Virus record (IMG/VR): IMGVR_UViG_3300025889_000118
Span: 1-62,944 of that record
DNA from: a virus
Lineage: Duplodnaviria > Caudoviricetes
Direction: 5' to 3' (one strand)
DNA: 62,944 nt
The position numbers and the translations under genes were made by a program. Below are positions 1 to 33,714 of the stretch, in pieces (positions within the stretch are counted from its first letter, which is position 1; each line of letters starts with the position of its first letter). The notes below the pieces were generated by a model. The model did no database searches and was not told where the DNA came from. It worked only from the letters and a program-made list of their open reading frames with translations.

Positions 1-68
1 GGTTGTGCTTTGTCGCACAAAACCCCAAGAGGAAAACCGAATTGAATCGGTTTTTGAATGGTCGAAAA

Positions 69-416
69 TCAACAATTTGATTTCCAAATGGTGTAGAATG
101 CCCGTAAAAACTGGCTTCTATCTGGCTCAAATGACTCATTATACAATTGTCTCGTTAATTCAAGTGGTTGTCTAATTGCCCTGCTAACATCACTAATATC
201 AACAGTGTTGATTAAATCCTGCTCTTGAAATTTCTGCATATCCATTTCTTCACTTTCCTTCTGTTTCTGTTCCTCTTCTTCAGTAGTTCCATTAACACAG
301 TAGCCACATTTTACAGTGACACTAATTTCAGTATCATCATGTTCATGCTCGGAATAATATATTCCAAAACTCACATATGTTCCGCATTCTACACATTCTC
401 TTTCAGTCCACGACAT
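69..416 (-). CDS. Hypothetical Zn-ribbon protein
   Basis: CVEC and CGYC pairs; ATG 46 nt from the palindrome at 462. Confidence 0.7.
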   Translation of the reverse strand: MSWTERECVECGTYVSFGIYYSEHEHDDTEISVTVKCGYCVNGTTEEEEQKQKESEEMDMQKFQEQDLINTVDISDVSRAIRQPLELTRQLYNESFEPDRSQFLRAFYTIWKSNC

Positions 417-452
417 ACCCTATTTAACCCATTAAGTATTAGTAGGGTTTTA

Positions 453-484
453 CAAAGTGCAACCATATGGTAGGTTATACTTTG
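453..484. promoter_or_regulatory. Palindromic site A
   Basis: CAAAG-tgca-ACCATATGGT-aggttata-CTTTG. Confidence 0.85.
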
Positions 485-732
485 TTAGAACCTACCTTAG
501 AGGTAAGGAGTTATTTCTAACTCGGAGGAATCGGAGAACCTACCCGTTCTACCCTCTTTTCTTTCATCAGTCTTACAATGCTGGATTTTGGAGAAATCAA
601 CGCGTATTATTTCTCTCCACACCATAACATACGCACCTTTCTGTCGTTGGTAGGCTTCTTTTCGTCAAGGAGAGGAATTCATCACTTGACTACAATAACA
701 GGAGTAGCGTATCGTATTAATATGGGGTTATA

Positions 733-759
733 CAAAGACAACCATATGGTAGTGCTTTG
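733..759. promoter_or_regulatory. Palindromic site B
   Basis: CAAAG-aca-ACCATATGGT-agtg-CTTTG. Confidence 0.85.
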
Positions 760-797
760 GACTACCTTATCATATACTTCAATAGCGAACTAATAGC

Positions 798-1109
798 ATG
801 AGAAAAATAACTCAAGACGCAATAAGAGCCTTTACGAACATGCAACCATTTAAGCGAGGAAACACCGAAGTTAAGATTTTGAAAGATGAGGGTTCACTAA
901 AACCGAACTTTGCCCGTCTTATTCTTCATGGGAATACTATTGCCGAAAAGAGTCACAAAGGGATTCAAATAACTTCGGCAGGTTGGAAAACAAACACCAC
1001 AAAAGAACGCCTTAACGGGTTGCCTAATGTTAATATTACACAAAAGGACTTTGTATGGTATCTAAACGGTCATGCTTGGAATGGAGGTTGGATTAAGATT
1101 ACAGATTAA
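798..1109 (+). CDS. Conserved phage-type hypothetical protein
   Basis: LHGNTIA...GWKTNTTKERLN pattern resembles small early phage proteins; apparently leaderless, 48 nt after site B. Confidence 0.8.
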   Translation: MRKITQDAIRAFTNMQPFKRGNTEVKILKDEGSLKPNFARLILHGNTIAEKSHKGIQITSAGWKTNTTKERLNGLPNVNITQKDFVWYLNGHAWNGGWIKITD

Positions 1110-1145
1110 AGAGGATATTTCCTCGCCCTTCGGGGTTCTATCTAA

Positions 1146-1174
1146 CAAAGTATGAACCATATGGTTGCCCTTTG
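1146..1174. promoter_or_regulatory. Palindromic site C
   Basis: CAAAG-tatga-ACCATATGGT-tgcc-CTTTG. Confidence 0.85.
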
Positions 1175-1211
1175 AGAAACCCCATTATATCCTCTACTTC
1201 GTATTTTAGAT

Positions 1212-1469
1212 ATGGCGTTTTGTAGTTGTCAAGATTGTCTTAGTGCGTTTTACGAAGAAAGAGCAGAAGCATATACCAATGAACATGGGTTAGACCACCA
1301 CCATAGATGTAATCATATAACTGAAAAGGTTAAAGATAAAATCGAGTTTGAAGATGAAGTCTATATTGCTGAATATGATATTTATGTTATGGAAAATGTG
1401 GTTCATTGGGAAGGTTATAGATGCACTTGCGAAGTCGAATATAAGGAAGATGAGGAGGGAGAAGAATAG
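1212..1469 (+). CDS. Acidic Cys/His-rich hypothetical protein
   Basis: CSCQDC, HHHRCNH and CTC motifs; ATG 47 nt after site C. Confidence 0.7.
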   Translation: MAFCSCQDCLSAFYEERAEAYTNEHGLDHHHRCNHITEKVKDKIEFEDEVYIAEYDIYVMENVVHWEGYRCTCEVEYKEDEEGEE

Positions 1470-1490
1470 ACCGTGTAAGGTCGCCAACCA

Positions 1491-1520
1491 CAAAGTTCAC
1501 GACCATATGGTAATGCTTTG
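1491..1520. promoter_or_regulatory. Palindromic site D
   Basis: CAAAG-ttcacg-ACCATATGGT-aatg-CTTTG. Confidence 0.85.
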
Positions 1521-1562
1521 CACTTACCCCGCATTAACGGGGGCAACGGGGGGAATACCGCA

Positions 1563-2069
1563 TCACTCTTCTTCTTGACCTCCTTCATCTGCTTTTACAG
1601 GTGGCGGGGTCATTGTTGGGATATTACCGTTCATAGAACCATCCCATCGGCCATCCTTGTATGCATTAACCAAATTTCTACCTGCTTGATTGGAGAAATA
1701 AGTAGCCATAGCGTCAATATCTGCATATGCACCACCAGTTCTACCATGAGGTAAAATTACTGTCAAAATTAAATCCTGTTCGCCAATATCCGCAAAGACA
1801 TTCTTCACCATTTGAGTCACAGAATCCACATTCAATTGAATATCTGTTGGTAGTGAAGATTGCTGACCTTTGCGAGCCGCAGGAAAATCCTCAAATCCAG
1901 CACCAAACGAGCGAATTGCTGTCCAATACTGACTACGGCCATCGTCATCAGTTGCGTTATTACCAAGAGTAATTGAGAGTTGAATTGCTTCACCACTCGC
2001 TCCTCTATCTTCTTTCTCTAACCATGCCAAAACTTTGTTTGTGTTTGTTATCCAATTATCTTCTTTCAT
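1563..2069 (-). CDS. Hypothetical protein, paralog family member 1
   Basis: MKEDNW start after AAGGAG; shares DDDGRSQYWTAIRSFG, RKGQQSSL, PHGRTGG and RWDG with 3857-4378. Confidence 0.9.
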   Translation of the reverse strand: MKEDNWITNTNKVLAWLEKEDRGASGEAIQLSITLGNNATDDDGRSQYWTAIRSFGAGFEDFPAARKGQQSSLPTDIQLNVDSVTQMVKNVFADIGEQDLILTVILPHGRTGGAYADIDAMATYFSNQAGRNLVNAYKDGRWDGSMNGNIPTMTPPPVKADEGGQEEE

Positions 2070-2161
2070 ATTATCAACTCCTTTAGAATTGTAATGCTTC
2101 ATTCCCCCCGAAGCAACCTATACCTCTCAAGGAGTATTAGGGTTGTAATTCACTTCGTCTG

Positions 2162-2192
2162 CAAAGCAGTTACAACCATATGGTATGCTTTG
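2162..2192. promoter_or_regulatory. Palindromic site E
   Basis: CAAAG-cagttaca-ACCATATGGT-atg-CTTTG. Confidence 0.85.
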
Positions 2193-2268
2193 CATTACCC
2201 TGCCTTCATACGAAGGACTTACGGTTGCCATTGGGAAACTTAATTCCCTAAAGCAAAGGGCGAGCCAA

Positions 2269-2520
2269 TTAATCTCTATCATATTCTCTATCTCTATACT
2301 CTTCATACGCCCTATCTTCTGCATCTGCTTTTACTTGTTCCCAATCTACCCATTCAAACTTTGCACTTGCTATCTCTTCCGCTAACTCATAAACTATGTC
2401 GTCTTTCTCACTTAGAAGTTCTTCTAACAAATCCATAAGGTCATCATAAGTAGTGTGGTTTTTAATCAAATCAAATGCTGAATTATATCCACAATGGTTT
2501 AGTATTTCTTCTAACCCCAT
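2269..2520 (-). CDS. Highly acidic small protein
   Basis: MGLEEILNH start coupled by TAATG to the upstream ORF; very D/E rich. Confidence 0.75.
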   Translation of the reverse strand: MGLEEILNHCGYNSAFDLIKNHTTYDDLMDLLEELLSEKDDIVYELAEEIASAKFEWVDWEQVKADAEDRAYEEYRDREYDRD

Positions 2521-2648
2521 TACTCTTCCTCCTCTAAACTGCTTAACCACTCATCAACTACTTCGGACACATACTTCGGCATTTCAGTCAATACGAGTTC
2601 ATAGCCAAGTGTTGTCACTACTTCTATTCTCCAACCAATATATTTCAT
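2520..2648 (-). CDS. 42-aa micro-protein MKYIGWRIEVV...LEEEE
   Basis: Translated by hand; overlapping stop/start with neighbours; resembles 2752-2910. Confidence 0.65.
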   Translation of the reverse strand: MKYIGWRIEVVTTLGYELVLTEMPKYVSEVVDEWLSSLEEEE

Positions 2649-2749
2649 TCTTTCACCCCATTACAAACGGTGCAACTTCTCAAAACAAACACATGGTTTG
2701 CTCTTTCGCATTCTTCTGTCACTATTCTAATCAATTCTTCTTCTTTCAT
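2645..2749 (-). CDS. 34-aa micro-protein with C/H/CxxC
   Basis: MKEEELIRIVTEECERANHVFVLRSCTVCNGVKE; translationally coupled. Confidence 0.55.
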   Translation of the reverse strand: MKEEELIRIVTEECERANHVFVLRSCTVCNGVKE

Positions 2750-2751
2750 AT

Positions 2752-2910
2752 TTATTCTTCCTCCAATCCTTCTTCTTTCGCCATATATTCAGAAAACTCC
2801 TCTTCTATTTCATTTGCAAGCCAATTGCTAATATCCCAAGCAACTAACTCAATTTCACCATCTTCGTTTTCTTTTTCAATAAATATATTCCAACCTACAA
2901 TCTTCATCAT
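2752..2910 (-). CDS. 52-aa acidic micro-protein MMKIVGWNI...
   Basis: Translated by hand; ATGA overlap with the upstream ORF. Confidence 0.65.
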   Translation of the reverse strand: MMKIVGWNIFIEKENEDGEIELVAWDISNWLANEIEEEFSEYMAKEEGLEEE

Positions 2911-3008
2911 TCTTCTTCACCCCAAAGAGTCATTCCACTTCCACAATAGATACAAACTTCTTTCATATCATCAAATGTCTTTTGTTTGCATCTAATACAT
3001 TCTTTCAT
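2907..3008 (-). CDS. 33-aa Zn-finger micro-protein
   Basis: MKECIRCKQKTFDDMKEVCIYCGSGMTLWGEEE. Confidence 0.6.
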   Translation of the reverse strand: MKECIRCKQKTFDDMKEVCIYCGSGMTLWGEEE

Positions 3009-3736
3009 TCTTTCTCCTCCGCTTTATTTCTTGCATCACGAACTTGTTTGATAATATCGGGTGTGCATTCGCTACGGCTTTCGGTCTTAGCATCAAAGTG
3101 GCAATCAATTTCGGGATATTCTGCAACTTCTGTATAGTTGGTTAAAGCATCTTCAAAAATAGATTGAATTTTACCCATATCATTTAGTGGTGTTTCTACA
3201 ACCATTTCTTCAATAACTTCTTTTCTTTGAACTTTATCGCTTACCCAAGTAATTTCAAAATCAATCCCTATACCCGAATAGTCGTTAAAATAAGTCGCTT
3301 TCATAATAACTTCGTTATCGTATTCATAATTATTTGAATAATACTGTCTAATAATAGCATCTGTTTCTTTCAAACTTAGTCTATTTCCATCGGGTTGAAC
3401 CCATTCGGTTTTAGTGACTGAATCTACATAGGAATCCTTAGTCACTTTATAGACATGTTTTACTTGATTAAACACTTCATCTCTCATACTCGAATATTTG
3501 TGTTCATAAACAATCTTGTTTCGGCTATTTACAATTGTGTGAAGGGTTGTATCTGTTGTGCTTGTTATTTCACCATAAGTCATAACATCACTATATCCCC
3601 AATCCACTACATTCAAGCCACTGTCTTGTAAATCTTTACACAACTTAGCCATCTCTAAATCGGTCAATTTGTCGTCTGCATATTTTATCTTCATTGTTCT
3701 TACATATGTTATTGGCATCTTTCTCACCAAATACAT
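3005..3736 (-). CDS. Hypothetical protein
   Basis: 243-aa ORF starting 42 nt from site F, with a TTATATA box upstream. Confidence 0.8.
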   Translation of the reverse strand: MYLVRKMPITYVRTMKIKYADDKLTDLEMAKLCKDLQDSGLNVVDWGYSDVMTYGEITSTTDTTLHTIVNSRNKIVYEHKYSSMRDEVFNQVKHVYKVTKDSYVDSVTKTEWVQPDGNRLSLKETDAIIRQYYSNNYEYDNEVIMKATYFNDYSGIGIDFEITWVSDKVQRKEVIEEMVVETPLNDMGKIQSIFEDALTNYTEVAEYPEIDCHFDAKTESRSECTPDIIKQVRDARNKAEEKE

Positions 3737-3766
3737 GAGTTATGGGGAGTATATAAGGTAGTAGTG

Positions 3767-3795
3767 CAAAGCATACTACCATATGGTTGGCTTTG
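3767..3795. promoter_or_regulatory. Palindromic site F
   Basis: CAAAG-catact-ACCATATGGT-tgg-CTTTG. Confidence 0.85.
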
Positions 3796-3856
3796 CCTAT
3801 ACCCCAATGAATTCCAAATGGGAATTCAAGGGGCAACAAGGGGTGATGCGTCACAA

Positions 3857-4378
3857 TCATTCTTCTTCTTCAGCCTCCATTTCGGCTCTTGTTGGGGTTG
3901 GTGTGATTTGAGGCACACCCGTTTTGCTGACGGATTCGCCATCCCAACGGTCTTCTTTGATTGAGGTCATCATGTAGTTATGAGCCTTCTTTGTTATGTC
4001 TTCACAGAATGCATTCCAATCTGCAAATACTCCGCCTGTCCTTCCATGAGGCACAATGACGGAAAGTAGTAGTTCGTGGCTTTCAGTAGGGATTCCCGCA
4101 AAAGCACTCATAACGGTTTGCTCCACAGTAGCAAGGACTAATTGTTGTGCCTCGCTTAAGGATGATTGTTGTCCTTTGCGGGCTGATGGAAAACCTTCGA
4201 GCCCGTTTCCGAAAGAACGAATTGCTGTCCAATATTGGCTTCTGCCATCATCGTCACTTGCGTTATCTCCCAATGTCAATGAAAGCATAATTGCTTGAAT
4301 TGATGGGTCTTCTTCATTTTGGGTTTCTGCCCAAAGTCTTACTTTGTTTGCGTTTATATTCCAATTTTCTAATTTCAT
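3857..4378 (-). CDS. Hypothetical protein, paralog family member 2
   Basis: Strong similarity to 1563-2069; AAGGAG RBS. Confidence 0.9.
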   Translation of the reverse strand: MKLENWNINANKVRLWAETQNEEDPSIQAIMLSLTLGDNASDDDGRSQYWTAIRSFGNGLEGFPSARKGQQSSLSEAQQLVLATVEQTVMSAFAGIPTESHELLLSVIVPHGRTGGVFADWNAFCEDITKKAHNYMMTSIKEDRWDGESVSKTGVPQITPTPTRAEMEAEEEE

Positions 4379-4465
4379 TTTTTTTCAACTCCTTTTTGTT
4401 GGTTGTTCTGCTTCACCCCTTGAAGCAATTACAAGAGTTATGCTAAGTATTTAGTAAGGTATGAG

Positions 4466-4492
4466 CAAAGCCATACCATATGGTTGGCTTTG
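4466..4492. promoter_or_regulatory. Palindromic site G, between divergent genes
   Basis: CAAAG-ccat-ACCATATGGT-tgg-CTTTG. Confidence 0.85.
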
Positions 4493-4541
4493 GCAACCTT
4501 AGTTTAGTATGAATATTTAAGGAGTTTTATGGAGGTAAGTT

Positions 4542-4880
4542 ATGACCAACCAAGAAGAAAAACAAGAAGAAATTTGGGAAGATGCACAAACATTACAAGA
4601 GGAAATATACAAGTTAGAAAATTCTCTTGATAAAATCAAGAATGAAAGTGTAAGAAAAGAGGTAGAAAAGACCCTCAAAAAACTGAACAACAAAGTAATA
4701 GAAATGACTAACCAAGCAAGATGCACTTGCGACTGGGAATATGGTGAAAAAGACCCTGACTGTATGGCTTGCTTGAACCAATGGCGTAATGAACGATATG
4801 GCTATGATGTTCACGATGTTGAGTGTTGTTGTAATGATTGCACATATGGAGCATATGGCTACCCAAGAGCAGATTATTGA
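4542..4880 (+). CDS. Coiled-coil, Cys-rich hypothetical protein
   Basis: GGAGGT RBS; CTC, CMAC and CCCNDC motifs. Confidence 0.75.
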   Translation: MTNQEEKQEEIWEDAQTLQEEIYKLENSLDKIKNESVRKEVEKTLKKLNNKVIEMTNQARCTCDWEYGEKDPDCMACLNQWRNERYGYDVHDVECCCNDCTYGAYGYPRADY

Positions 4881-4929
4881 AGCCTAAATAAAAACTGATT
4901 AGATTCAGTTCCCTACGGGGTTTTAGAGT

Positions 4930-4951
4930 CAAAGCCTCCCAACCATATGGT
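4930..4951. promoter_or_regulatory. Palindromic site H (terminal, lacks the right CTTTG arm)
   Basis: CAAAG-cctccca-ACCATATGGT next to the AT-rich non-coding region. Confidence 0.8.
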
Positions 4952-4959
4952 AAGAAACA

Positions 4960-5500
4960 CATCAAAAGAGCGAGTTAAAGTTAGCCAATACATAAAACCA
5001 CCCTAAAAATTAGAACAATTTATTTTCACCCTTTCATAACATTAAAAGCACAATCTATCTTAATTGTTCATATATAAATTATCATAGGTATGTTATATTT
5101 TATATTTGTATATAATATAATATTAATTTCTGCATTTGTCTCATGAAAAAAAAGAAATGAGACGAGACAAATTAGGAGAGGATAGGGGTAGTTATGCAAC
5201 ATAAGTATATATGATTTAATCATATATCTCATTATTCTCATATCTCATATCTCATTCATTCATTCATTATTATTATTATGCATAACTCTCTCTATGAGAG
5301 AGCCTTATAGGAGTATGAGAATGAGAGAGAGTTATAGAAAAGAGAAATGAGACGAGACGAATTATTTTGCGAGTTCTCGACTTCTCAGGGTGAGTTATGT
5401 TGCATAAGGCATTTGTCTCATTTCTGATGAGACGAATCGCCATGAGACGAATCAAAAAACGGGCAAAAACGGGTTTGAATAAGGCTTAACTCCAATTAAA
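4960..5500. repeat. Non-coding AT-rich region with ATGAGAC/GTCTCAT iterons and inverted repeats; putative replication origin
   Basis: No ORF; near-pure AT tract around 5060-5130; ATGAGACGAGAC at 5157 and 5347; ATGAGACGAATC twice (5427, 5442); TTTGTCTCAT twice; inverted repeats ttatgcaacataa/ttatgttgcataa and ataactctctct/agagagagttat. Confidence 0.6.
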
Positions 5501-5521
5501 TTTTATAGCAGTTTAACGAAT

Positions 5522-5537
5522 TAGGGTTATTTAAATA
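5522..5537 (+). promoter_or_regulatory. Archaeal TATA-box promoter TAGGGTTATTTAAATA
   Basis: 15/16 identical to 12447-12462; upstream of an ORF. Confidence 0.6.
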
Positions 5538-5583
5538 GGTTAGAAAATGTAGTATTTTGCCAAGAATGGCAGGAGAAATAAAC

Positions 5584-6042
5584 ATGGATGATGTAAATTG
5601 GAATAGCCTCGTAATAGAGGTTGAAGAATACCTTGAAGCAGACGAAACATTGGAAGAGGGGCTAAAGCAGGTGCTAAGGCTCAATCTACAAATTGGAACA
5701 AATAACACAAGTGAGCGTGAAGCGGCTCGAAATGCACTAAAGGCATTATTGAGAGGTCGTGACGGAACTCCTTTCCGTAAGGGTAAGAAGTCAGCAGTTC
5801 CTACCGCAGTTCGCCTATCAATTGACCGAATTTGTGGAGTTGTAGAAGAAGCATCAGTGCTTTACTTTAACCACGATAGCATTATTGGAGCAATTACCAC
5901 CGCAAGAGGTGGAGCAACTTATGATGATGCAGAAGCCTATGCCTCAAGTGTAGTTAAGAGAACAAGAAGCCAATTGGCTAAAATGTTCAAAGATGGCTCT
6001 TGGGATGGAACAGTAGAATCTCTACTTCCATCAGAAGAGTGA
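5584..6042 (+). CDS. Hypothetical protein, divergent paralog family member 3
   Basis: NWN, LxLxxGxN, PFRKGKKS and KDGSWDG align with the two array paralogs; AGGAG RBS before MDDVNW. Confidence 0.85.
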   Translation: MDDVNWNSLVIEVEEYLEADETLEEGLKQVLRLNLQIGTNNTSEREAARNALKALLRGRDGTPFRKGKKSAVPTAVRLSIDRICGVVEEASVLYFNHDSIIGAITTARGGATYDDAEAYASSVVKRTRSQLAKMFKDGSWDGTVESLLPSEE

Positions 6043-6215
6043 ATTGACTCATGGGGTTTATCCGCTAATAAGAGGTTACTCTCGAATTGGATTAAAATAC
6101 CTCTTTCCCCACCGAGATTCAATGGGAGTTTGTTGGAAGATAAAAAAATCGAAACCCTAAGATGTTCTTGTGTTTTGCATTCGACAAGAACACACCTCCA
6201 AGAGATTTTCTCCCA
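6043..6215 (+). ncRNA. Candidate structured RNA with two long nested stem-loops
   Basis: tgggg/cccca plus aagaggt/acctctt; tgggag/ctccca plus ttgga/tccaa plus tgttcttgt/acaagaaca. Confidence 0.4.
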
Positions 6216-6232
6216 CCCATTTAGGTGATTAA

Positions 6233-6496
6233 ATGAGATTAATTGAAGAAGTTTATATTAAGGCCGAAAAAGATACTATTTGTCAAACCTGCGGAATTGA
6301 TATTCCTGAAGGGGCAAATCATTTACTGGAAACTTATGTTCATCAAGGGGCTCTATTAACAAGCCACTATTGTTTGAACAAGAAGTGTAATCCGCCCAAC
6401 AATGTGAGGCTAAGGTTGTATAAATACGGAAGCCTCTTGTTGATTGGAAGCGTGGTGATTTACCTTTTATGGAGTGAATCATTTCCAATAGGCTAA
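6233..6496 (+). CDS. Zn-finger protein with C-terminal transmembrane helix
   Basis: CQTC...HYC...C; hydrophobic C-terminus; AGGTGA RBS. Confidence 0.75.
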   Translation: MRLIEEVYIKAEKDTICQTCGIDIPEGANHLLETYVHQGALLTSHYCLNKKCNPPNNVRLRLYKYGSLLLIGSVVIYLLWSESFPIG

Positions 6497-6554
6497 ACAA
6501 ATCCTAAAGGTTAGGGGGGGTGACACCCTTAAATACTCCCCGACCCCCTCGCCC

Positions 6555-6694
6555 TTGAGAACAAATGCGAATCCAACGCATTCTCAAACAACTTGAATTG
6601 AAAATCAATTCAAACTTATGGGAGAAGTTGAGGCAGGGGCAACAAAGAAGCATGACACCGTATTCAACTCCTACGGTAGTCGCCTCCTTCTCCC
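6555..6694 (+). ncRNA. Candidate structured leader or ncRNA upstream of the helicase
   Basis: Hairpins 6555-6587 and 6593-6613; nested gggagaag/cttctccc, gaggc/gcctc and accgta/tacggt. Confidence 0.4.
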
Positions 6695-13680: not shown

Positions 13681-14835
13681 ATGAATTTAAGAATAAGAAA
13701 ACCAGATGATAGCCATACTTTTTGGGAAACAGAAGTAGCCCTTAACGGACATATTTCTAATCGAACTGTTAGTATTAGCGGAATTTTGAACGCTAAAGAC
13801 CCTATTCATGAGGGGCTAAAACAACTACTTCAACGGTCTATTTCTGACCGTAGAGGGCAGAAGTTGTTCTATGGCCTTAGACAAGGAGATAACACTCTTA
13901 TGATTGGCGAGACTCCTTTTTTAATACATAAAAGTTCTCGCTATTATATTAACGGCCAACTAATGAAATTAGAAGAAATGTGCCATGCTCTCGCAAGAGT
14001 TTTGTTTAAGAGTTGTTTTGAAAAAGACCCTGCTAAATTATTACCTTACTTGTATTCTACGATGCAACTACCCGAATCAGTGAAGTATGTTATTGAGAAT
14101 AGAGTTCCATATTTCTTTTATGATGCATTTGATAGACATGATGTTAGACTAAATGTTCAGCAAATTTCTGATGAAGAATGTGCTATTGAAATAGGAGATG
14201 GAGTTTGGGGAAATATCACAGTGAGAGATTTAGAGTCATTTTGCAGGTTCTATGTTTCTCAAAAGAAAAGCAAATGGGAGTATATTTCTCCACAGAATCT
14301 TTATGAAAGACTTATTGGTAGAAAACCAAGCGTTTCAGATACGAAGGTTTTAGTCGCCTTTCTAAAACAGAATAGAAAAGAGGCTATTGTTGAAGAAAGA
14401 GCAGAACAACTGGTAAAAGAAATGTTAGAACAATATTCTGACAGGCTAAGAGCAGAATTTAAAGACGGCAAACTAAGTGATTTGTTTATCAAAGGAAACA
14501 GATTTGATTGGAAATTATCTCATAGAGGGGGAGGTGGTGGAACACAGAATGTTTCTACTTTCATTCATCAACCTTTAAGACAAAAGGTTCTCGATGACGA
14601 GGGTAAGGCCTTGAAAGATGAAGAAGGTAACTATATTACAACATTGTCCGAATATGATTGGAGAGGCCCAATTTGCATTGATAATATGGGCAATACTCCC
14701 GTTGGCGACCAATTCGCAAGTAGAGCATTGGCTCTATTAAATGATAATTTTACAATAAAGGCAGTTAGCACAATAAATAGTTATATTACTACTAATGAAA
14801 ATGAAAATAGAGTTGATTGGAATGAAGTGCGATGA
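13681..14835 (+). CDS. Hypothetical protein with C-terminal GPICID motif (possible E2-like Cys)
   Basis: 384-aa ORF between the Ubl and E1 genes; the CDS is secure, the function is speculative. Confidence 0.8.
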   Translation: MNLRIRKPDDSHTFWETEVALNGHISNRTVSISGILNAKDPIHEGLKQLLQRSISDRRGQKLFYGLRQGDNTLMIGETPFLIHKSSRYYINGQLMKLEEMCHALARVLFKSCFEKDPAKLLPYLYSTMQLPESVKYVIENRVPYFFYDAFDRHDVRLNVQQISDEECAIEIGDGVWGNITVRDLESFCRFYVSQKKSKWEYISPQNLYERLIGRKPSVSDTKVLVAFLKQNRKEAIVEERAEQLVKEMLEQYSDRLRAEFKDGKLSDLFIKGNRFDWKLSHRGGGGGTQNVSTFIHQPLRQKVLDDEGKALKDEEGNYITTLSEYDWRGPICIDNMGNTPVGDQFASRALALLNDNFTIKAVSTINSYITTNENENRVDWNEVR

Positions 14836-15676
14836 GTGTAATAGTTTAGATAATTACTTTGATGAGCGACTTGGTGAAAGAGTTTGTTCTTCTTGTGGAT
14901 TAGTTTTAGTCAATCATTTATTTGAAGAAACAACACATATCCTAAATTCAGTAGGAGAAGTAGTTCATAATGCTGATAATGATAAACTTGGTTCCGTAAT
15001 AACAGGAAAGGGCTCTTTCAAATACAATAGGTTTCAAAATCCAGTAGTTCCAAAACACATTACTAATGGATTGATGTATTGTAATATGGTATTAAGTAAT
15101 ATTACAACCTCTCAAGATACTAAAGATAGGGTAGAAAAAGTCTATACTGAATTGTGTTCTTCTTTAAGTAGTTTTACTCGATATACTTATGAAAATAGAG
15201 CAACTGCGGTAGTTTTCTATGTGCTAAGAGAAGCAGGAACTCCTGCTACAATGAAAGAAGTTTGTTCTGAATTCGAGGTAGAGATTAAGTTAGTTAGGAG
15301 AATATTAAGAAAAATAAATAGTTTTTACAAAAACAAATCTAATACACATATAGTAAGTCCTGTCTTTTATATGAATAAAACTGTAAATTCAATTGCTAAT
15401 GATTTATCTTTTCAGAATCAGTGCAGAATGGTTCTTGAAAAGTTTGAGTCTATTATAGCAAATAGCGACTTTAATAAAAGCAAATCTTATTATGCAAGTA
15501 TTTGTTGGATAACTTCTAATATATATGTTAGAGAATATACAAGAACATTGATTGCAGAAAAGACAGGATATAATGAAAAGTGTATCTATTTGCAAACAAA
15601 ATCACTGTTAAGTCTATTTGGGCTAAAAGATGTAAATGATGTAAAAGGTATAGATATAAATAAATTAGGTGTTTAA
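14822..15676 (+). CDS. tfb: Transcription factor B (TFIIB)-like protein
   Basis: CDEC...DERLGERVCSSCGLV Zn ribbon plus two cyclin-like repeats. Confidence 0.85.
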   Translation: MKCDECNSLDNYFDERLGERVCSSCGLVLVNHLFEETTHILNSVGEVVHNADNDKLGSVITGKGSFKYNRFQNPVVPKHITNGLMYCNMVLSNITTSQDTKDRVEKVYTELCSSLSSFTRYTYENRATAVVFYVLREAGTPATMKEVCSEFEVEIKLVRRILRKINSFYKNKSNTHIVSPVFYMNKTVNSIANDLSFQNQCRMVLEKFESIIANSDFNKSKSYYASICWITSNIYVREYTRTLIAEKTGYNEKCIYLQTKSLLSLFGLKDVNDVKGIDINKLGV

Positions 15677-15825: not shown

Positions 15826-16089
15826 ATGTTGAATAATAAAAATGGAAAATTGTATGTAGGAGATAAAGAAGTCATAAAAGGGTATGAATCGTTTAGCGGT
15901 TGGTATTGGTTTGTGACCGAAATAGAAGAAGAAGATTATGGAGGACACCCGTTGTATTTTGGATATGTTCAAGGATTTGAAGATGAATGGGGAACTTTTT
16001 GGTTGGGCGAATTACAACCACTAATTGATAAAGGTAAAGTTTGGGAAATTAATGAAGAAGATTTGTCACATGCAGGAAGGAGAGATTAA
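15826..16089 (+). CDS. DUF2958-like protein
   Basis: WYWFVTE...FGYVQGFEDEWGTFWLGEL. Confidence 0.7.
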   Translation: MLNNKNGKLYVGDKEVIKGYESFSGWYWFVTEIEEEDYGGHPLYFGYVQGFEDEWGTFWLGELQPLIDKGKVWEINEEDLSHAGRRD

Positions 16090-16090
16090 A

Positions 16091-16648
16091 ATGAGAAAAG
16101 TATTAGTTATTGGAGCAGGGGGAATTGGAAGTTTTCTAATTCCTCTTTTAGATAAAGTAGGATTGTATGATATTACAGTTGCAGACCCCGATAAAGTAGA
16201 AACTAAGAATCTATCATATCAAAACTTTAGAGAGGGTGATGTTAATTTATACAAAGTAGGTAGTATGAAGGCTCGATTTAATAGTGTTAAATTGATTAGT
16301 AAATATCCTATCCTAACTGAAAAACAAATGCAAGGATATGACTTGGTTATTTGTTGTGTAGATAATATTGGTCTTAGAAGAACCTTATACAACACAAGTG
16401 TTAAATGGCTTGATTTGAGGGCTCAAGGTAGAAACGCAGCACTTGTGAGTCATAACGCAGACCCTAAGATGTATGATACGCTATTAGCAGGAGAAGAAGG
16501 TTCATTCAGTTGTCAAGGAGATTCTTGGGATGGTTCAAATAAAGGAGTTCATTTTATGCAAGTAGCAATTGCTGGATTAGGGGCTCAATGGATTCAAAGA
16601 TGGTTTAACGGTGAAGAAGTTAAAGAATATACAGTTATCAATATGTGA
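16091..16648 (+). CDS. ThiF/MoeB/E1-like activating enzyme
   Basis: VIGAGGIGS, DPDKVETKNLSYQ, DLVICCVDN; candidate catalytic Cys in SFSCQ. Confidence 0.9.
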   Translation: MRKVLVIGAGGIGSFLIPLLDKVGLYDITVADPDKVETKNLSYQNFREGDVNLYKVGSMKARFNSVKLISKYPILTEKQMQGYDLVICCVDNIGLRRTLYNTSVKWLDLRAQGRNAALVSHNADPKMYDTLLAGEEGSFSCQGDSWDGSNKGVHFMQVAIAGLGAQWIQRWFNGEEVKEYTVINM

Positions 16649-16653
16649 TTATT

Positions 16654-16866
16654 ATGAAATATACAGAAGAAGATATTGGAATGGTTTTAGATATTGATAC
16701 AGATAACGGTTCATCTTATGATGAAAGAATAGTATTGGTGTATTGCCAAGTATGTAGTTCAAGATTTATTGGCCCAATTAAAGAGGCAGGAGGATTTCTT
16801 GCAAGACATGAATTCTTTCATACTTGGGAATTTAAAATGGAAATGCAAACAGAATTGGAGGCTTAA
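16654..16866 (+). CDS. C2H2-like Zn-finger protein
   Basis: CQVC...HEFFH. Confidence 0.65.
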   Translation: MKYTEEDIGMVLDIDTDNGSSYDERIVLVYCQVCSSRFIGPIKEAGGFLARHEFFHTWEFKMEMQTELEA

Positions 16867-16868
16867 TT

Positions 16869-17177
16869 ATGAGTAAAAAATGGAATAAAGAAAAAGAATT
16901 AGATTTGTTAGTTAATTTTTATGAGTTGTCTATTGATGAAGCAAGGGAAAGATACGATGCTTCATACAAGACAATTGCAGGAAGATTAGAACAATTATTT
17001 GATGCAACAGAACCCGAACAGATAGCACTACTTATGGAGGCTTCTGAGGAGGTAAAAAGGCGTAAGGGTGTATCGCTTAATAGCACCCCAAAAAGTCGCA
17101 AGGAGCAACGCTTATTGCGTAAAATAAACAAATTACAGAACAAGTTAGAAGAATTAAGGAGAGATAATAATGAGTAG
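16869..17177 (+). CDS. Possible HTH/Myb-like plus coiled-coil protein
   Basis: KWNKEKELDLL...ARERYDASYKTIAGRL. Confidence 0.65.
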   Translation: MSKKWNKEKELDLLVNFYELSIDEARERYDASYKTIAGRLEQLFDATEPEQIALLMEASEEVKRRKGVSLNSTPKSRKEQRLLRKINKLQNKLEELRRDNNE

Positions 17178-17775
17178 AAGTGGAGATTGGTTTATTAGAA
17201 CCTATGGAGATGATATATTTGATGATTCGGAATATGAGATTTGGAGAGCAGAAAAAGAAATAGATTTGTTAGAAAAGAGACAAGAAGCGGAAGAGTATAT
17301 TCTACGCTCTTTTGTGAAAATTTCAGAAGAAACTGCTAATAGTTGTGGAGGAAATTTTGAAGACATTGAAGATATTGCTCAACACGATTTAGAATTCCAT
17401 GAAGCCATTTGGTATGCTTCTACACAAATACTGCCCGAACTCGAAGTTCAAGTTGTTATTGACGGCAAAAATAATTGTTTTGTCACAACAGGTTCAGCAG
17501 GTTATGTAGAATTTGGAATGAGGCCACCAATCGGAATGACACTACCGATTAGATGTTGGATTCATACTCATCCTTTTGGTAGTGCTTATTTTAGTGGAAC
17601 AGATATTAGAACTGTTTCTATTTGGGAACCTAATATGGAATGTGCTTATGTTCTTGGTGGAATAGGTCATTCGGGTTTTTGGTCTAATAGAAACCCTAAA
17701 CAATTAGAAATTTTCAGAAACAATGAATATGAAAGAACTCAAACATGGGGGATAACAGATGATAGCGAAGAATAA
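17170..17775 (+). CDS. JAB/MPN+ metallopeptidase (Ubl processing)
   Basis: E...WIHTHPFGSAYFSGTD matches JAMM HxH-x7-S-x2-D. Confidence 0.9.
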   Translation: MSRSGDWFIRTYGDDIFDDSEYEIWRAEKEIDLLEKRQEAEEYILRSFVKISEETANSCGGNFEDIEDIAQHDLEFHEAIWYASTQILPELEVQVVIDGKNNCFVTTGSAGYVEFGMRPPIGMTLPIRCWIHTHPFGSAYFSGTDIRTVSIWEPNMECAYVLGGIGHSGFWSNRNPKQLEIFRNNEYERTQTWGITDDSEE

Positions 17776-29617: not shown

Positions 29618-30381
29618 AATTTAATGTAAATAGCAACGAACTAAAAGAAGCATTAGAAAGCCTACAAGTAAAAGGTAAGCATCTAACAAATAATGGATTC
29701 AGTAGTAGTAATTTTGGGAGTATCTTTTACGCTCATATCTATGAAAATACTCTATCATTATACAATGGTGACTCTACTTTTATGCTAAAGATTACTTTGC
29801 AGGTAGAAGAAGGAGAGAACGGTAGTTTTGTTGCCGATTCTTCTCTTATTCTGCCTTATTTGAAATCATTTGGCGATACAGTAAATGTTGTTGTAGGCGA
29901 CTACATATCAATGTCAAGTGGCACAAAGAAAGCCAATGTGCCTAAACTTGTAGAACACCCCTCTAACGATGCATTACAAAGACTAATCCAAATGACCAAT
30001 CATGTTAGATATGAACCAAACCCACAAACAATGTTTGCATTTGGTAATTCTAACTTTGAAGGAGCATTTACTCTTAGTCAAAATGTTTTCAAAGATTGTA
30101 TTAAGAATGCCGAATTAGTAAAGTCGGGTATTTACAATCTTAACTTCCATGAGGGAGTAGTTAAGATTACTTCAACTACAAACGCAACTACTTCTTATGA
30201 AGAGAGTATTACTCCTACATTTTTAACAGGAGATTCAGCAACACTGGACTTTAGTTCTCCATTGTATTCTTTCTTTGAGAAAGACCAAATGTTAAACTTC
30301 TATGTAAAAGATGAGTTCCCTATGTTAATCGTAGCAAATGATAGGTTAGTTTTGAAAGCCCCTTATGTCGGTGGTAATTGA
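29614..30381 (+). CDS. PCNA-like sliding clamp
   Basis: About 255 aa; two-domain beta-alpha-beta pattern; C-terminal FPM...LKAP; precedes PolB. Confidence 0.7.
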   Translation: MKFNVNSNELKEALESLQVKGKHLTNNGFSSSNFGSIFYAHIYENTLSLYNGDSTFMLKITLQVEEGENGSFVADSSLILPYLKSFGDTVNVVVGDYISMSSGTKKANVPKLVEHPSNDALQRLIQMTNHVRYEPNPQTMFAFGNSNFEGAFTLSQNVFKDCIKNAELVKSGIYNLNFHEGVVKITSTTNATTSYEESITPTFLTGDSATLDFSSPLYSFFEKDQMLNFYVKDEFPMLIVANDRLVLKAPYVGGN

Positions 30382-32039
30382 TGATTATTAGCAAATGTGA
30401 TGATGGTAAAAGTATCTTTTTATCATGGAGAGAGAATGGAGAGAAACAATTTAATATTGTGCCTTTCAGTCCTTATTTCTATATATTGGATAGCCAAGAG
30501 GAAATTCCTTCTTATTCTCCTTCTAAATACATTACAAGAGATTTTGAATATATTAAAGGCGATTTTGTAAATCTTGATAAAGAACCATTAAAGAAAGTTA
30601 TCGTAGAAAATTCTTTTGATTTAAGAAAAGCAAAAGATTTGTTTAAGCAAACTTATGAAGCAGATGTTCCTTATCACTTTAGATATGCAGTTGATAATAT
30701 TCATGAAATGCCCGAATACGATTTAAGAAAATGGTATTGGGATATGGAATGGCAACAAGGCGGAGAATATCACGATTGTATTACTACTATTGTAGCGTAT
30801 GATAACTACGATAAAAAATATTACCAGTGGGTATGGTTTCCTAATGGAGAATCTAATGGATTCTCCACTTTACAATATAAACAAATGTATGCTTTTAATT
30901 CTGAAAAAGATATGCTTGAAAACTTCATGAGAACAATGCTTACTAAAGACCCCGATATGCTAATTGCTTGGTTCGGACAAAGATTCGATTTGCCTCATTT
31001 GATTAAAAGAGCCTGTGCTTTAGGATTAGACCCTCGCATAATGTCTCCTATTGCATCAATTAAGGGCATTTCTAAGGCGAAGGAGGGCTTCAAATTCGCA
31101 TATGGTGAAAAGGGATTCTCGCCAATAGAACAACCAATTGGAGGCCGCATAACTCTTTCTCTTGATTTGGCTTTTGAAAGACAATGGAATGATTCTCAAA
31201 GAGGAACATTACCTTCTTTGTCTTTGGAATATGTTTCTCAATTATTATTTGGGGAAGGTAAAGTAAAAGAAAGTAAATTTACAGATAAGAATGAATTCTT
31301 TCGTAGGGCTTGGTTAGAAGATACAGAAGTGTATCTTGAGTATGCTTTAGTTGATGTAGAATTATTAGTTAGAATAGATGAAACTAATTATTGTAGTGAA
31401 GCAGTTATATCTCTACAAAGACTACTAAAAGCACCATTTGATGCTTGTTTCTATGCTTCTCATATGGGTAGTATTTACTTTATGAGAAATGCTTGGTGGA
31501 AAGCACCAACAGGAGATAAAAGCGTAGAAAGAAAGGATTATGATGGGGCTATGATTTACGACCCGTTAAGTGAAAATACTAATGGGTTACATCTTAATGT
31601 CGCTGCTTTTGATTTCGCAGGTCTATATCCTTCTATGATGATTGCAAGAAATATTTCTTGGGAAACCAAATCCGAAGACCCTACTGAATTTGGTGTAAAT
31701 ATTGCTACACCAAGAGATTTTAGCGAGATAAGTAGAGAAAAAATGCTTTACTATAAAACAGATAAATTAGGTCTTTTGCCAAGAGCAGTATTGGAATTGA
31801 AAGAATTAAGAAATGAATATAAGCGTCTGATGAAAGAAGCAAGAGAAAATAATACTGGGGAATACCAAAAATGGTATAATAATCAAATGGCAGTAAAAAG
31901 ACTAATGGCATCTTTTTATGGTATTGTTGCTTTTCAAGGATTTGGATGGGCTGATGTTGATTTAGCCTCATCAATTACTGCGAGTGCAAGAGAGGCTATT
32001 AGGTTAGCCGCATTTAAGGCAAAGGAGATGGAATCTTGA
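30381..32039 (+). CDS. polB: Family B DNA polymerase, N-terminal part (3'-5' exonuclease, motifs A and B)
   Basis: WDME, FDLP, YALVD, DFAGLYPS, KRLMASFYG; stops just before motif C. Confidence 0.95.
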   Translation: MIISKCDDGKSIFLSWRENGEKQFNIVPFSPYFYILDSQEEIPSYSPSKYITRDFEYIKGDFVNLDKEPLKKVIVENSFDLRKAKDLFKQTYEADVPYHFRYAVDNIHEMPEYDLRKWYWDMEWQQGGEYHDCITTIVAYDNYDKKYYQWVWFPNGESNGFSTLQYKQMYAFNSEKDMLENFMRTMLTKDPDMLIAWFGQRFDLPHLIKRACALGLDPRIMSPIASIKGISKAKEGFKFAYGEKGFSPIEQPIGGRITLSLDLAFERQWNDSQRGTLPSLSLEYVSQLLFGEGKVKESKFTDKNEFFRRAWLEDTEVYLEYALVDVELLVRIDETNYCSEAVISLQRLLKAPFDACFYASHMGSIYFMRNAWWKAPTGDKSVERKDYDGAMIYDPLSENTNGLHLNVAAFDFAGLYPSMMIARNISWETKSEDPTEFGVNIATPRDFSEISREKMLYYKTDKLGLLPRAVLELKELRNEYKRLMKEARENNTGEYQKWYNNQMAVKRLMASFYGIVAFQGFGWADVDLASSITASAREAIRLAAFKAKEMES

Positions 32040-32926
32040 CCGTTCAATTTTGGGTAGCATTGGATAGTCATGATAGAATAACTATCAATAATGCCCTTAG
32101 AGGAAAAGAATATCAGTGTTTAGAATGCAACGGTATTATGATACCGAAAAAAGGCGAAATAAAACAACATCACTTTGCCCATAAATCAGACTATTCTTGT
32201 AGTGGAGAAGGACAAAAACATCTTTACATTAAAGAATTGATTTTTGAAATTCTTCAATTAGACGAATATTTATTAAATGGTGCTAAAATATACATGGAAA
32301 AATCTTTCTTAGGATTAAGACCAGATATTCTAATAAAATGGAATAAAGATAGATATGTTGCGATAGAAGTTTGCGACACATCTGAATCTTCAAAAGATAA
32401 AAAGAAAATATATGGTAAAAATATGATTGAGTTCAAAATCAGTGATTGGAAAGAAGAAGAAATGACTAATCCTATTTACATTTTTAATTCTGTATATCCT
32501 ATTTTATTTAGAAAAATTTTCAACATAACTTTTGAAGAAAAACAAAGGAAACTTAAGGAGTTAAACTTAGAATATAATAAATTGTTAAGTGAATATAAGC
32601 AAGCCCAGTTGATTTTTAACAAAGACTTTTCTTATATTGATGGAAGTTGGGGAGATTTATCAAGAATACAAGATTGCCCACCCCGAACTTATGTAGCCAC
32701 TACTGATTGGTTTGACGATAAGCAGACAAATAAAATAGCAAAACTTACTTCTAAAAGTGGCAAAATTACTTGGGTAAAACTCATAGAATTTTTAGGTGAA
32801 GATGATTATAGAGATTATTATTCTTATGAAAAAATGGAGATTTCAGAAGAATCAAAATCCATTTTACATAAACAATATAATTACAACAAAGTTTGGGATG
32901 AATCTGATTGGGAGGAATTTGAATGA
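32036..32926 (+). CDS. CoiA-like Zn-finger PD-(D/E)xK nuclease
   Basis: YQCLEC...KKGEIKQHHFAH...H...K; RPDI...AIEV. Confidence 0.75.
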   Translation: MTVQFWVALDSHDRITINNALRGKEYQCLECNGIMIPKKGEIKQHHFAHKSDYSCSGEGQKHLYIKELIFEILQLDEYLLNGAKIYMEKSFLGLRPDILIKWNKDRYVAIEVCDTSESSKDKKKIYGKNMIEFKISDWKEEEMTNPIYIFNSVYPILFRKIFNITFEEKQRKLKELNLEYNKLLSEYKQAQLIFNKDFSYIDGSWGDLSRIQDCPPRTYVATTDWFDDKQTNKIAKLTSKSGKITWVKLIEFLGEDDYRDYYSYEKMEISEESKSILHKQYNYNKVWDESDWEEFE

Positions 32927-33517: not shown

Positions 33518-33714
33518 ATGCTGAACAAATGAAAAAGAAAATTGAAGAATTAGAAATAAAAATTAAAGGATTAGAAAACGACTTAGATGTTTTGTATCAA
33601 ACAGACAACAGAAAACTCGCAAGAGCAATACATGAGATACAAGAACATCTTAGAAAAGAAGGACTTTATATCATAAATGATATTTATGCTCCTACAATGG
33701 TGGGAATGTCATGA
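33514..33714 (+). CDS. Small coiled-coil protein
   Basis: Heptad repeats; overlaps the PolB-C start (ATGA). Confidence 0.65.
   Translation: MNAEQMKKKIEELEIKIKGLENDLDVLYQTDNRKLARAIHEIQEHLRKEGLYIINDIYAPTMVGMS

Follow-up and report, generated by a model that had tools for sequence, protein, structure and literature searches.

Introduction

Among described genetic systems, the closest to the locus reported here are the promoter-early stem-loops (PeSLs), mobile regulatory cassettes of T4-type phages (PMC2839356, PMC4122927). In the haloarchaeal myovirus HGTV-1, a conserved motif composed of a TATA element and an inverted repeat precedes the left-end open reading frames (ORFs), as described in PMC3950731. 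Here we analysed a 62,944-nucleotide stretch of a tailed virus (IMG/VR record IMGVR_UViG_3300025889_000118, positions 1 to 62,944; hereafter the window), which begins with an array of gene cassettes delimited by a 10-bp palindrome, ACC-ATAT-GGT (ACCATATGGT; hereafter the core). Comparison with related viruses and with contigs from other studies revealed that cassettes are gained and lost, are relocated and change orientation at these cores. The original prediction, made from the letters of this stretch, had proposed integron- or shufflon-like recombination sites or an array of hairpin promoters like those of phage N4.

By its gene content the window fits a group B/B1 magrovirus. Magroviruses are described as belonging to the most abundant viruses of the surface ocean; their hosts are uncultured and have been inferred, but not proven, to be marine group II archaea (PMC5434244).

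Results

The core is confined to a single array

Eight exact copies of the core are present in the window, at 462, 741, 1156, 1502, 2175, 3778, 4475 and 4942, all of them between plausible genes, and none was found outside 462–4951 over the whole 62,944 bases. Allowing one mismatch adds only positions 9262 and 9987 outside the array. Dinucleotide-preserving shuffling yielded a mean of 0.03 copies and a maximum of one, with none of 100 shuffled sequences reaching eight. The window itself opens with GGT-tgtg-CTTTG, the right half of a ninth site, and the relative L095 carries a full core (L095:6516) whose right flank is the same as that of this half-site. Seven sites possess both a CAAAG and a CTTTG arm, with left/right spacers of 4/8, 3/4, 5/4, 6/4, 8/3, 6/3 and 4/3, and the site at 4942 has the left arm only. 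Outside the arms lies a third conserved tier, GGT/ACC, often lengthened to GGGGTT/AACCCC. Two cassette genes, at 1563–2069 (−) and 3857–4378 (−), are paralogs (49% identity, E = 6e-56), and the interval 472–740 holds no convincing ORF and no Rfam match. No Rfam family was detected in 1–6600 at E values up to 1, nor any tRNA gene in the window. The exact count and the ORF map thus bear out much of what had been read from the sequence alone: the eight perfect intergenic cores and the edge half-site, a chance expectation well under one copy, the arm spacers (reproduced exactly, along with the missing right arm at 4942), the interval without a clear ORF and the duplicated paralogs. The reading of the region as an array of gene cassettes delimited by cores is supported.

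We scanned IMG/VR with the pattern CAAAG-N2-9-core-N2-9-CTTTG and obtained at least 119 stretches on approximately 102 contigs, mostly of 25–100 kb. These listed stretches (1.02 Mb) contain at least 513 exact cores, 428 of the 513 listed lying outside crude ORFs even though ORFs cover 73% of the DNA. A search independent of the motif, using the helicase alone, retrieved 13 relatives at 65–82% protein identity. All 12 relatives with at least 5 kb of upstream sequence hold 6–9 cores, all of them upstream of the helicase start, at −7216 to −1699. The thirteenth, with only 1.9 kb upstream, has no core. In the five relatives rated complete (92–97 kb), all 7–9 cores form a single cluster of 3.1–4.8 kb, and a reversed control pattern gave no match. 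Across 596 Gb of prokaryote genomes the composite pattern returned 40 isolated matches in unrelated bacteria, against its own chance estimate of about 35, so the motif does not belong to host genomes. The same scan returned one 14.7-kb contig with five complete sites (L162, NZ_NZTP01000027.1), which was placed in a metagenome-assembled genome labelled Altibacter and is probably a misbinned magrovirus contig.

The ends of the arrays are one-sided. Terminal sites lack the outer stem-loop in 11 of 13 arrays beside the backbone and in 11 of 12 at the far end, as expected if the backbone contributes the core only and the stem-loops are part of the cassettes. In 11 of 12 relatives (L120–L132; for example L123:3977), a variant site, GCCATATGGT, is found 33–230 nt to the left of the first core. 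Its context is strongly conserved and A/T-rich, with AAATAAAAAATTTTGAAACAAA before it and TGT after it; it lies at the far array boundary, and the corresponding place falls outside the window.

Cassettes are exchanged at the cores

We compared 13 helicase-anchored arrays, which all have the right backbone in common; a conserved left flank is present in 11 of the 12 relatives. Between these shared flanks, cassette families vary in content, order and orientation. With families given as letters, a minus sign for inverted cassettes and a dot for positions without a letter, the order reads I. C. A F A. in the window, B K F A -C -I A G in L120, B A L M A N D H in L122, B A E.. A H D in L123, B D -G -C A E A J A in L126 and B D -G -C A J E A in L127. 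Family C (Kyano_Gp96-like) has one orientation in the window and in L129 and the opposite one in the nine other arrays that hold it. Families G and I are also found in both orientations, the family I gene (cassette C0 of the window) being inverted relative to the backbone in L120 and L121. The gene of cassette C3 recurs in L101, approximately 93% identical but inverted, and interval C1 is missing from L095. Flank matching showed that the flanks of a cassette, on its promoter side as on its end side, stay with it as far as the core, and that it is the neighbour across the core that changes.

A 5,477-nt contig assembled from run X4 of another study resolves one such event at the nucleotide level. 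It follows window positions 1–1155 and then 1502–3070 with two differing letters over about 2.7 kb, and reaches 2,753 nt further left than the window start. The joint from 1155 to 1502 skips 346 nt, and 10 letters at it could come from either site. The two sites have different flanks, which places the crossover inside the core, and a 10-bp repeat is far too short to have produced this join in an assembly built from 31-letter words. The contig represents a near-identical strain without the cassette 1166–1501, with the crossover in the core. Parts of the window left uncovered in X4, X5 or X15 were not interpreted.

Two further events could be placed at similar resolution. L130 equals L125 plus one cassette, and the single L125 site joins the left flank of one L130 site to the right flank of the other. 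The cores that bound cassette J in L126 are not those that bound it in L127 and L132; where J is missing, each genome shows one core between the outer flanks, mutated at one position in L127. In all three cases (X4, L125/L130 and cassette J), the crossovers of insertions, deletions or relocations between close relatives fall in the motif, the resolved breakpoints lying in the core or within about 10 nt of it. The aligned relatives are consequently in line with the shuffling that had been proposed: content, order and orientation all vary, and the breakpoints that can be resolved are at or near cores.

Each site comprises two stem-loops flanking ATAT

Every half-site is a short stem-loop, consisting of GGT and a stem strand, a loop that holds CTTTG, and the returning stem strand with ACC. 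Two such stem-loops flank ATAT in a full site, the core being their junction, ACC-ATAT-GGT. This model holds for each of the 15 arm-bearing halves of the window, and strict half-sites are confined to the array (7 against 0.1 expected in the window).

The two halves of a site behave independently of each other. Among 325 two-armed sites, the length of the left spacer does not predict that of the right one (r = −0.19), and the two are equal in 16.3% of cases, against 16.4% under independence; equal-length spacers are as palindromic within a site (36%) as between different sites (35%). Within a half, on the other hand, the spacer before CTTTG and the spacer from CTTTG to ACC correlate in length (r = 0.65, n = 534), and their complementarity score is 0.53, compared with −0.99 ± 0.064 when partners are permuted inside length classes (n = 595). 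Watson-Crick pairs occupy the first three positions above the GGT/ACC foot in 72, 52 and 46% of cases (permuted: 41, 28 and 32%). For 45 distinct half-sites of one geometry, we counted 84.8% paired cells (shuffled: 73.5 ± 1.8) and 41 double-sided changes (21.2), and obtained a covariation score of 0.290 (0.119), with none of 500 shuffles as high for any of the three measures; slid controls for covariation were all lower (0.00–0.198). Since the spacers within each half correlate in length and co-vary in sequence, the stem-loops form within the halves.

The proposal that the CAAAG and CTTTG arms pair across the core is not supported, as spacer lengths are uncorrelated and cross-core complementarity is no better than between unrelated sites. 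On the comparative data we accordingly rejected a cross-core hairpin, the halves matching neither in length nor in sequence. Integron attC sites pair their arms across one imperfect hairpin, whereas pairing here stays inside each half. The asymmetry between G-U and A-C mismatches, which would separate RNA from DNA stems, did not rise above permuted controls.

Sites separate promoter-like and terminator-like cassette ends

The start codon of the outward gene peaks at 50–60 nt from the core centre, and an ATG lies 29–34 nt past the ACC foot in 120 of the 281 half-sites that have an ORF within 120 nt. Across 125 aligned cases, a pyrimidine (C or T) occupies position −1 in 95%, with an A/T-rich stretch from −27 to −22 and a C-rich one from −32 to −28. 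A Shine-Dalgarno signal is absent from these 125 array gene starts; genes outside the array mostly carry GGTGA/GGAGG-like leaders. Sigma-70 promoters were considered and dismissed, with 20 found against 18.8 expected. Given the spacing of foot, TATA-like box and ATG, and what is established about archaeal promoters, the gene-start sides have the layout of an archaeal TATA promoter that drives a leaderless mRNA, of which HF2 offers a measured example (PMC8707807).

Gene-end sides differ in carrying a small GC hairpin past the foot in 29% of 189 cases, as opposed to 4% of 128 promoter sides. These hairpins lie between the stop codon and the site, often read CCC-UUCG-GGG in the mRNA sense, and occur in the window at 1121–1135, 4904–4915 and 1527–1543; the GGT foot of the adjoining stem-loop shares their last G's. 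The site's own stem-loops are of similar quality on both sides (promoter, 0.14 against −1.59 permuted; gene end, 0.25 against −2.07 permuted). Crude classification of 433 sites placed 142 between a gene end and a gene start, 90 between two ends and 27 between two starts, and left 174 with at least one unclassified side. From these classes, the site emerges as the boundary element of every unit, beyond being part of a promoter. Co-regulation of the cassettes by the sites is plausible. Contigs from the RNA library X15 overlie parts of C4 (1550–2063, no differences), C5, C6 and backbone genes, and were not used as evidence, since contigs prove neither transcription nor its ends.

Genome identity and candidate enzymes

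Pfam scans of 59 window ORFs identified a family-B DNA polymerase (PolB) in two pieces (30378–32039 and 33711–34625), a GroEL-type chaperonin, an ATP-dependent DNA ligase with its N-terminal domain, a clamp-loader ATPase and a tail tube protein, as well as a UvrD-type helicase, an ERCC4-HhH nuclease, a PD-(D/E)XK nuclease and a pyrimidine-dimer glycosylase. Group B/B1 magroviruses are described as having a split PolB, a GroEL-type chaperonin in the replicative block and an archaeal-type ATP ligase (PMC5434244), together with genomes of 65–100 kb and a head-tail structural module (PMC5434244, Philosof et al.). Our assignment to this group relies on the matching split PolB, chaperonin, ligase and tail tube and on the relatives of 92–97 kb. 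Magroviruses also encode a RadA-like ATPase and a single-stranded DNA-binding protein (PMC5434244). When the polymerase was used to search a phage collection, only matches of approximately 25% identity were returned, none of them to a named magrovirus.

No recombinase had been visible in the stretch at first reading, and this holds for both the window and its relatives. Recombinase and transposase families are missing among the 59 scanned ORFs, and none of the five complete relatives encodes a tyrosine recombinase (PF00589; 14 of 14 control genomes positive), a serine recombinase or a Y1 transposase (PF01797), whereas control genomes responded in these searches. The 59 ORFs also yielded no RNA polymerase domain.

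A 293-aa protein encoded at 14795–15676 (+) matches the TFIIB zinc ribbon just above threshold (Pfam, 29.9 bits; cut-off 29) and, weakly, human TFIIB as far as the first cyclin repeat (E = 0.015). All five complete relatives have it (44–63% identity), and it could be a TFB-like viral factor that reads virus-specific promoters. Between the polymerase pieces, the N-terminus of the product of 32036–32926 (+) matches the CoiA N-terminal domain (E = 1.7e-5). The structural module contains a 2,087-aa ORF without a Pfam family (43278–49541, −). At 16052–17775 (+), a JAB-domain protein is encoded two genes downstream of a ThiF-family protein, and the two may form a ubiquitin-like modification pair.

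Features of the array

The truncated ninth site occupies 1–24, with GGT, the CTTTG-loop stem-loop and the ACC foot cut off from its left half by the window start. Cassette C0 (69–416, −) encodes a 115-aa protein of no family, its ATG lying about 50 nt from the centre of the core at 462. Site 1 (446–496) has its left stem-loop at 446–464, the core at 462–471 and the right stem-loop at 469–492, extendable to 496. Interval C1 (472–740) has a leftward promoter-like sequence, ACCCCATATTAATAC, beside the core at 741. In site 2 (726–766; stem-loops 726–743 and 748–766, core 741–750) the DNA folds as two local hairpins. The C2 gene (798–1109, +) encodes 103 aa assigned to Pfam Kyano_Gp96 (E = 6e-17) and to phrog_554 of unknown function. 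Site 3 (1134–1181; stem-loops 1134–1158 and 1163–1181, core 1156–1165) is one crossover partner in the X4 deletion, which removes the cassette with the 85-aa C3 gene (1212–1469, +). The next site, site 4 (1479–1528; stem-loops 1479–1504 and 1509–1528, core 1502–1511), separates convergent gene ends and has a promoter on neither side.

The right part of the array starts with C4 (1563–2069, −), a family A paralog of 168 aa from the second ATG and 179 aa from the first, followed by site 5 (2141–2199; stem-loops 2141–2177 and 2182–2199, core 2175–2184). C5 (2269–3736, −) is an operon of abutting small genes plus a 243-aa gene and has no internal cores. Site 6 (3757–3803; stem-loops 3757–3780 and 3785–3803, core 3778–3787) leads to the second family A paralog, C6 (3857–4378, −; 173 aa), for which a confident all-helical model was obtained. 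Site 7 (4458–4498; stem-loops 4458–4477 and 4482–4498, core 4475–4484) lies between divergent genes, the rightward one being C7 (4542–4880, +; 112 aa), with a coiled-coil N-terminus and a Cys-rich C-terminus. Site 8 (4919–4951), terminal and beside the backbone, consists of the inner stem-loop 4919–4944 and the core 4942–4951; its outer stem-loop is absent.

Nine of the 10 proteins of the array region have no PHROG family and the tenth belongs to a family of unknown function. Family A, the most widespread cassette family, has no match in Pfam, PHROGs or NCBIfam, and the best Foldseek match of its all-helical model (pLDDT 87.9) in the PDB reaches only E = 1.0. It is present in one to three copies in nearly every array, almost always in one orientation, and its members have acidic C-terminal tails. 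The fixed backbone gene adjoining the array (5566–6042, +; 158 aa) is a distant family A relative (tblastn, 25–33% to cassette copies). Two proteins were considered as DNA-binding candidates and set aside, neither being an obvious binder: this 158-aa protein, in view of its kinship with family A, and an 87-aa protein that looks like a zinc ribbon with a hydrophobic tail.

Directly past the last site, window 5000–5550 is AT-rich, with direct repeats ATGAGACGAGAC(A/G)AA at 5157, 5347 and 5442, a 27-nt repeat at 5148 and 5338, and inverted copies. To judge from these repeats, the segment looks like an iteron-type replication origin beside the cassette array. CCATGG does not occur in the window (9.6 expected outside the array) and CATG is depleted (131 against 205), which suggests avoidance of a restriction site. 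The inner CATATG of the core was examined for the same avoidance and rejected, as it is not depleted outside the array (19 against 20.5 expected).

Discussion

A probable mechanism of cassette exchange and points that weigh against it

We propose that the region is a hyperplastic, probably early gene block of a group B/B1 magrovirus. Each cassette would start with a promoter-like end, in which a foot ACC(Y)(Y) and a TATA-like box precede a leaderless ATG about 30 nt past the foot, and would finish with a terminator-like end, often with the small GC hairpin CCC-UUCG-GGG in the mRNA sense. Short stem-loops with the invariant GGT/ACC foot and the invariant CTTTG loop cap both ends, and adjacent cassettes join at the invariant palindrome ACC-ATAT-GGT. 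Recombination of one core with another could then delete or insert a cassette, presumably via a circle, or move it to another core; as the core is self-reverse-complementary, a cassette could be inverted too. Throughout these rearrangements every cassette would retain its own expression signals. By analogy, the most likely mechanism is PeSL-like, and we regard it as reasonably probable that self-contained cassettes with archaeal promoter geometry recombine at the core through the general recombination or replication machinery. It is favoured because the T4-type PeSL needs no dedicated enzyme and because the HGTV-1 motif has been likened to PeSLs. Under this mechanism we infer promoter and terminator activity of the cassette ends, early timing, a circular intermediate and joining by the general machinery.

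Several observations sit uneasily with this proposal. Ten base pairs are very short for ordinary homologous recombination. The core is identical between relatives at 65–82% helicase identity, which points to recognition by a conserved protein that the PeSL-like mechanism leaves unnamed. Promoter function cannot account for this invariance either, since 90 of the 433 sites (by the crude classification) lie between two gene ends and the bare terminal cores are perfectly conserved too. The C-rich ACCYY sits at the position of the B recognition element (BRE), unlike the purine-rich BRE described for other archaea (PMC11065993). Single-stranded DNA folding favours a long cross-core hairpin at five of the eight window sites, which makes such a hairpin physically possible; two of the eight fold as two local hairpins, and the site at 4942 shows no significant fold. 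As for exchange at the cores, none of 13 loose contig ends lies within 15 nt of a core, the nearest being 37 nt away. C5 varies internally, family F measuring 1593, 1075 and 807 nt among relatives, and a contig of run X2 has a second joint, from 2538 to 2901, inside C5 and off any core (362 nt skipped), with weak support from 21 letters on the shorter side. The identity of about 93% between the C3 gene and its inverted counterpart in L101 is limited to the ORF, the in-cassette flanks being much more diverged. In the closest IMG/VR relative (82% helicase identity) the junctions are too diverged for base-level placement. As every unit boundary has a core, "at the core" and "between genes" coincide at low resolution, and only the three fine-scale events separate them. 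The RNA data consist of contigs alone, which cannot show transcript starts or ends.

Alternative explanations

One alternative is a dedicated site-specific system, an integron analogue that lacks a known integrase. A conserved protein of the virus (a new recombinase, or else a nuclease that cooperates with the viral ligase) would recognise the core and the stem-loops borne by the cassettes, cutting and rejoining within ACC-ATAT-GGT, and the bare end cores would serve as primary insertion sites. The X4 crossover is confined to 10 identical bases, the core is invariant at 65–82% helicase identity even where there is no promoter, one-sided array ends are expected if circles with two stem-loops enter a bare core, and both cassette orientations suit a symmetric cut site; turnover is also fast (one cassette difference against two differing letters on the X4 contig), and nucleases and a ligase are encoded. 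We nevertheless consider such a system rather unlikely. Neither a tyrosine or serine recombinase nor a Y1 transposase was found in the five complete relatives or the 59 window ORFs, no protein is linked to the sites, and short direct repeats beside hairpin-forming DNA are hot spots of slippage. The T4-type PeSL, moreover, is described as reaching the same outcomes without a dedicated enzyme (PMC2839356). An elaborated form of the idea is an orientation-free, integron-like magrovirus system without a known recombinase, in which a conserved protein cuts and rejoins the symmetric core guided by the cassette stem-loops and circles bearing one site enter bare cores; this we put forward as a speculative possibility, unlikely as it stands. 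The PeSL-like mechanism is also to be preferred to a purely regulatory or insulating element, with a dimeric host or viral protein on every site and rearrangement as a by-product of the repeats. The fixed distance from site to start codon, the presence of a site at every unit boundary whatever the gene orientation, the TFIIB-like protein conserved in five of five relatives, the early regulatory sequences of archaeal viruses with inverted repeats at promoters (PMC11065993) and the promoter role of HF2 intergenic repeats (PMC8707807) are all compatible with such a protein. A protein reading double-stranded DNA cannot, however, select complementary stems of variable length; HF2 repeats hold position and orientation (PMC8707807) and the cassettes here are shuffled, and the one-sided terminal sites suit a history of insertion better. 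We therefore judge a purely regulatory role improbable.

The remaining alternatives place the function of the stem-loops in transcription or in the transcript. As RNA-level elements they would be bidirectional terminators, stabilisers or processing sites: either strand gives a CAAAG-loop stem-loop, AUAU and a CUUUG-loop stem-loop, the stems co-vary and sites follow gene ends. Yet the promoter-side stem-loops lie upstream of the predicted start and are formed as well as those at gene ends, the 3' ends of cassettes have their own GC hairpins before the site (29% against 4%), no U run follows the stem-loops and G-U pairs do not exceed permuted controls, which leaves an RNA element with very little probability. 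Least credible of all are N4-type hairpin promoters read by a virus-encoded RNA polymerase. Conserved-loop stem-loops beside gene starts and the 2,087-aa virion-module protein without a family would suit them, but the stem-loop stops about 30 nt short of the ATG, and the TATA-like box and pyrimidine-purine start beyond it make up a host-type archaeal arrangement, the 59 scanned ORFs contain no RNA polymerase domain, and sites also occur where no gene starts. This part of the original prediction is not supported as stated, the geometry being that of an ordinary archaeal TATA promoter after a stem-loop.

Significance

The principle of shuffling regulatory cassettes is already known. What is new is that the setting is an archaeal virus, with nucleotide-level proof, that the site is a symmetric pair of stem-loops with an invariant palindromic junction, that cassettes change orientation and that the array ends are one-sided. 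The main texts of two magrovirus papers mention no promoter, palindrome or repeat, and that of PMC5434244 contains neither "motif" nor "intergenic". Literature containing the 10-mer included no virus paper among the matches listed.

The motif provides a sequence signature that marks a variable, probably early gene block and predicts its transcription units, and would give viruses of marine group II archaea their first explicit promoter model. It also provides nucleotide-level evidence that archaeal viruses swap single, ready-to-express genes at a 10-bp site, even between near-identical strains. By analogy with Sulfolobales viruses (PMC11065993), the orphan cassette genes are natural candidates for host take-over or anti-defence functions. 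If a dedicated enzyme were involved, it would represent a new recombination system and possibly a useful tool. Should the orientation-free system prove true, site-specific recombination in archaeal viruses would gain a new class, and the gene turnover of these viruses in the ocean one of its main engines, with cassettes entering or being re-set in either direction while expression is kept.

Comparison with known systems

Short extragenic hairpins with a conserved stem foot and inverted pairs recall the repetitive extragenic palindromic (REP) sequences and bacterial interspersed mosaic elements (BIMEs; REPINs). Those depend on the Y1 transposase RAYT, found in none of the five complete relatives, and the sites here are limited to one array and tied to gene boundaries. 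With integrons the array shares single-gene cassettes, precise excision and insertion at a short conserved core, imperfect inverted repeats of variable centre borne by the cassettes, and a site of simpler form where the array ends. Integrons use an IntI-type tyrosine recombinase, absent from the five complete relatives, and the carrier here is an archaeal virus; their cassettes are mostly promoterless and in one orientation, whereas those described here lie on both strands, have their own promoter-like elements and are joined by a symmetric site. Shufflons rely on an Rci-type recombinase that rearranges segments inside one gene; here whole genes move, and are also gained and lost, without a tyrosine recombinase. 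Membership in either class, as originally suggested, is thus not supported, in view of the missing tyrosine recombinase and the promoter-like elements that the cassettes bear.

Archaeal viruses offer closer parallels. The anti-defence genes of Sulfolobales viruses are likewise small, singly transcribed early genes with a common regulatory sequence at a strong promoter, in some cases with inverted repeats at the BRE (PMC11065993). As described there, these sequences are promoter-centred, have a purine-rich BRE and are thought to be repressor sites, and cassette mobility is not among the properties reported. The class I/II intergenic repeats of HF2, also an archaeal tailed virus, contain BRE/TATA promoters; by the account in PMC8707807 they keep position and orientation among relatives and include no paired stem-loops round a palindrome. 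HGTV-1, another archaeal tailed virus, has its motif before many small ORFs on one side of the genome, and its authors likened it to PeSLs. The passage of PMC3950731 on the motif does not mention nucleotide-level cassette exchange, a palindromic core or paired stem-loops.

The PeSLs themselves, as described for T4-type phages, are the nearest counterpart. They are dense in a hyperplastic region of small, mostly orphan genes, as all cores here lie in an array of 3–5 kb, and they place a composite of promoter and stem-loop at each gene, the promoter in our case being predicted from geometry. In both systems close relatives differ by insertions, deletions and replacements at the motifs, an integrase is absent and the cassettes have their own expression signals, predicted ones in the magroviruses. 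PeSLs, in contrast, contain directional sigma-70 promoters, are conserved over about 100 bp and have a stem-loop that is a tested terminator. The magrovirus array combines archaeal TATA/leaderless geometry, predicted from spacing, with a symmetric pair of stem-loops round an invariant 10-bp palindrome; its cassettes change orientation, and its ends are one-sided.

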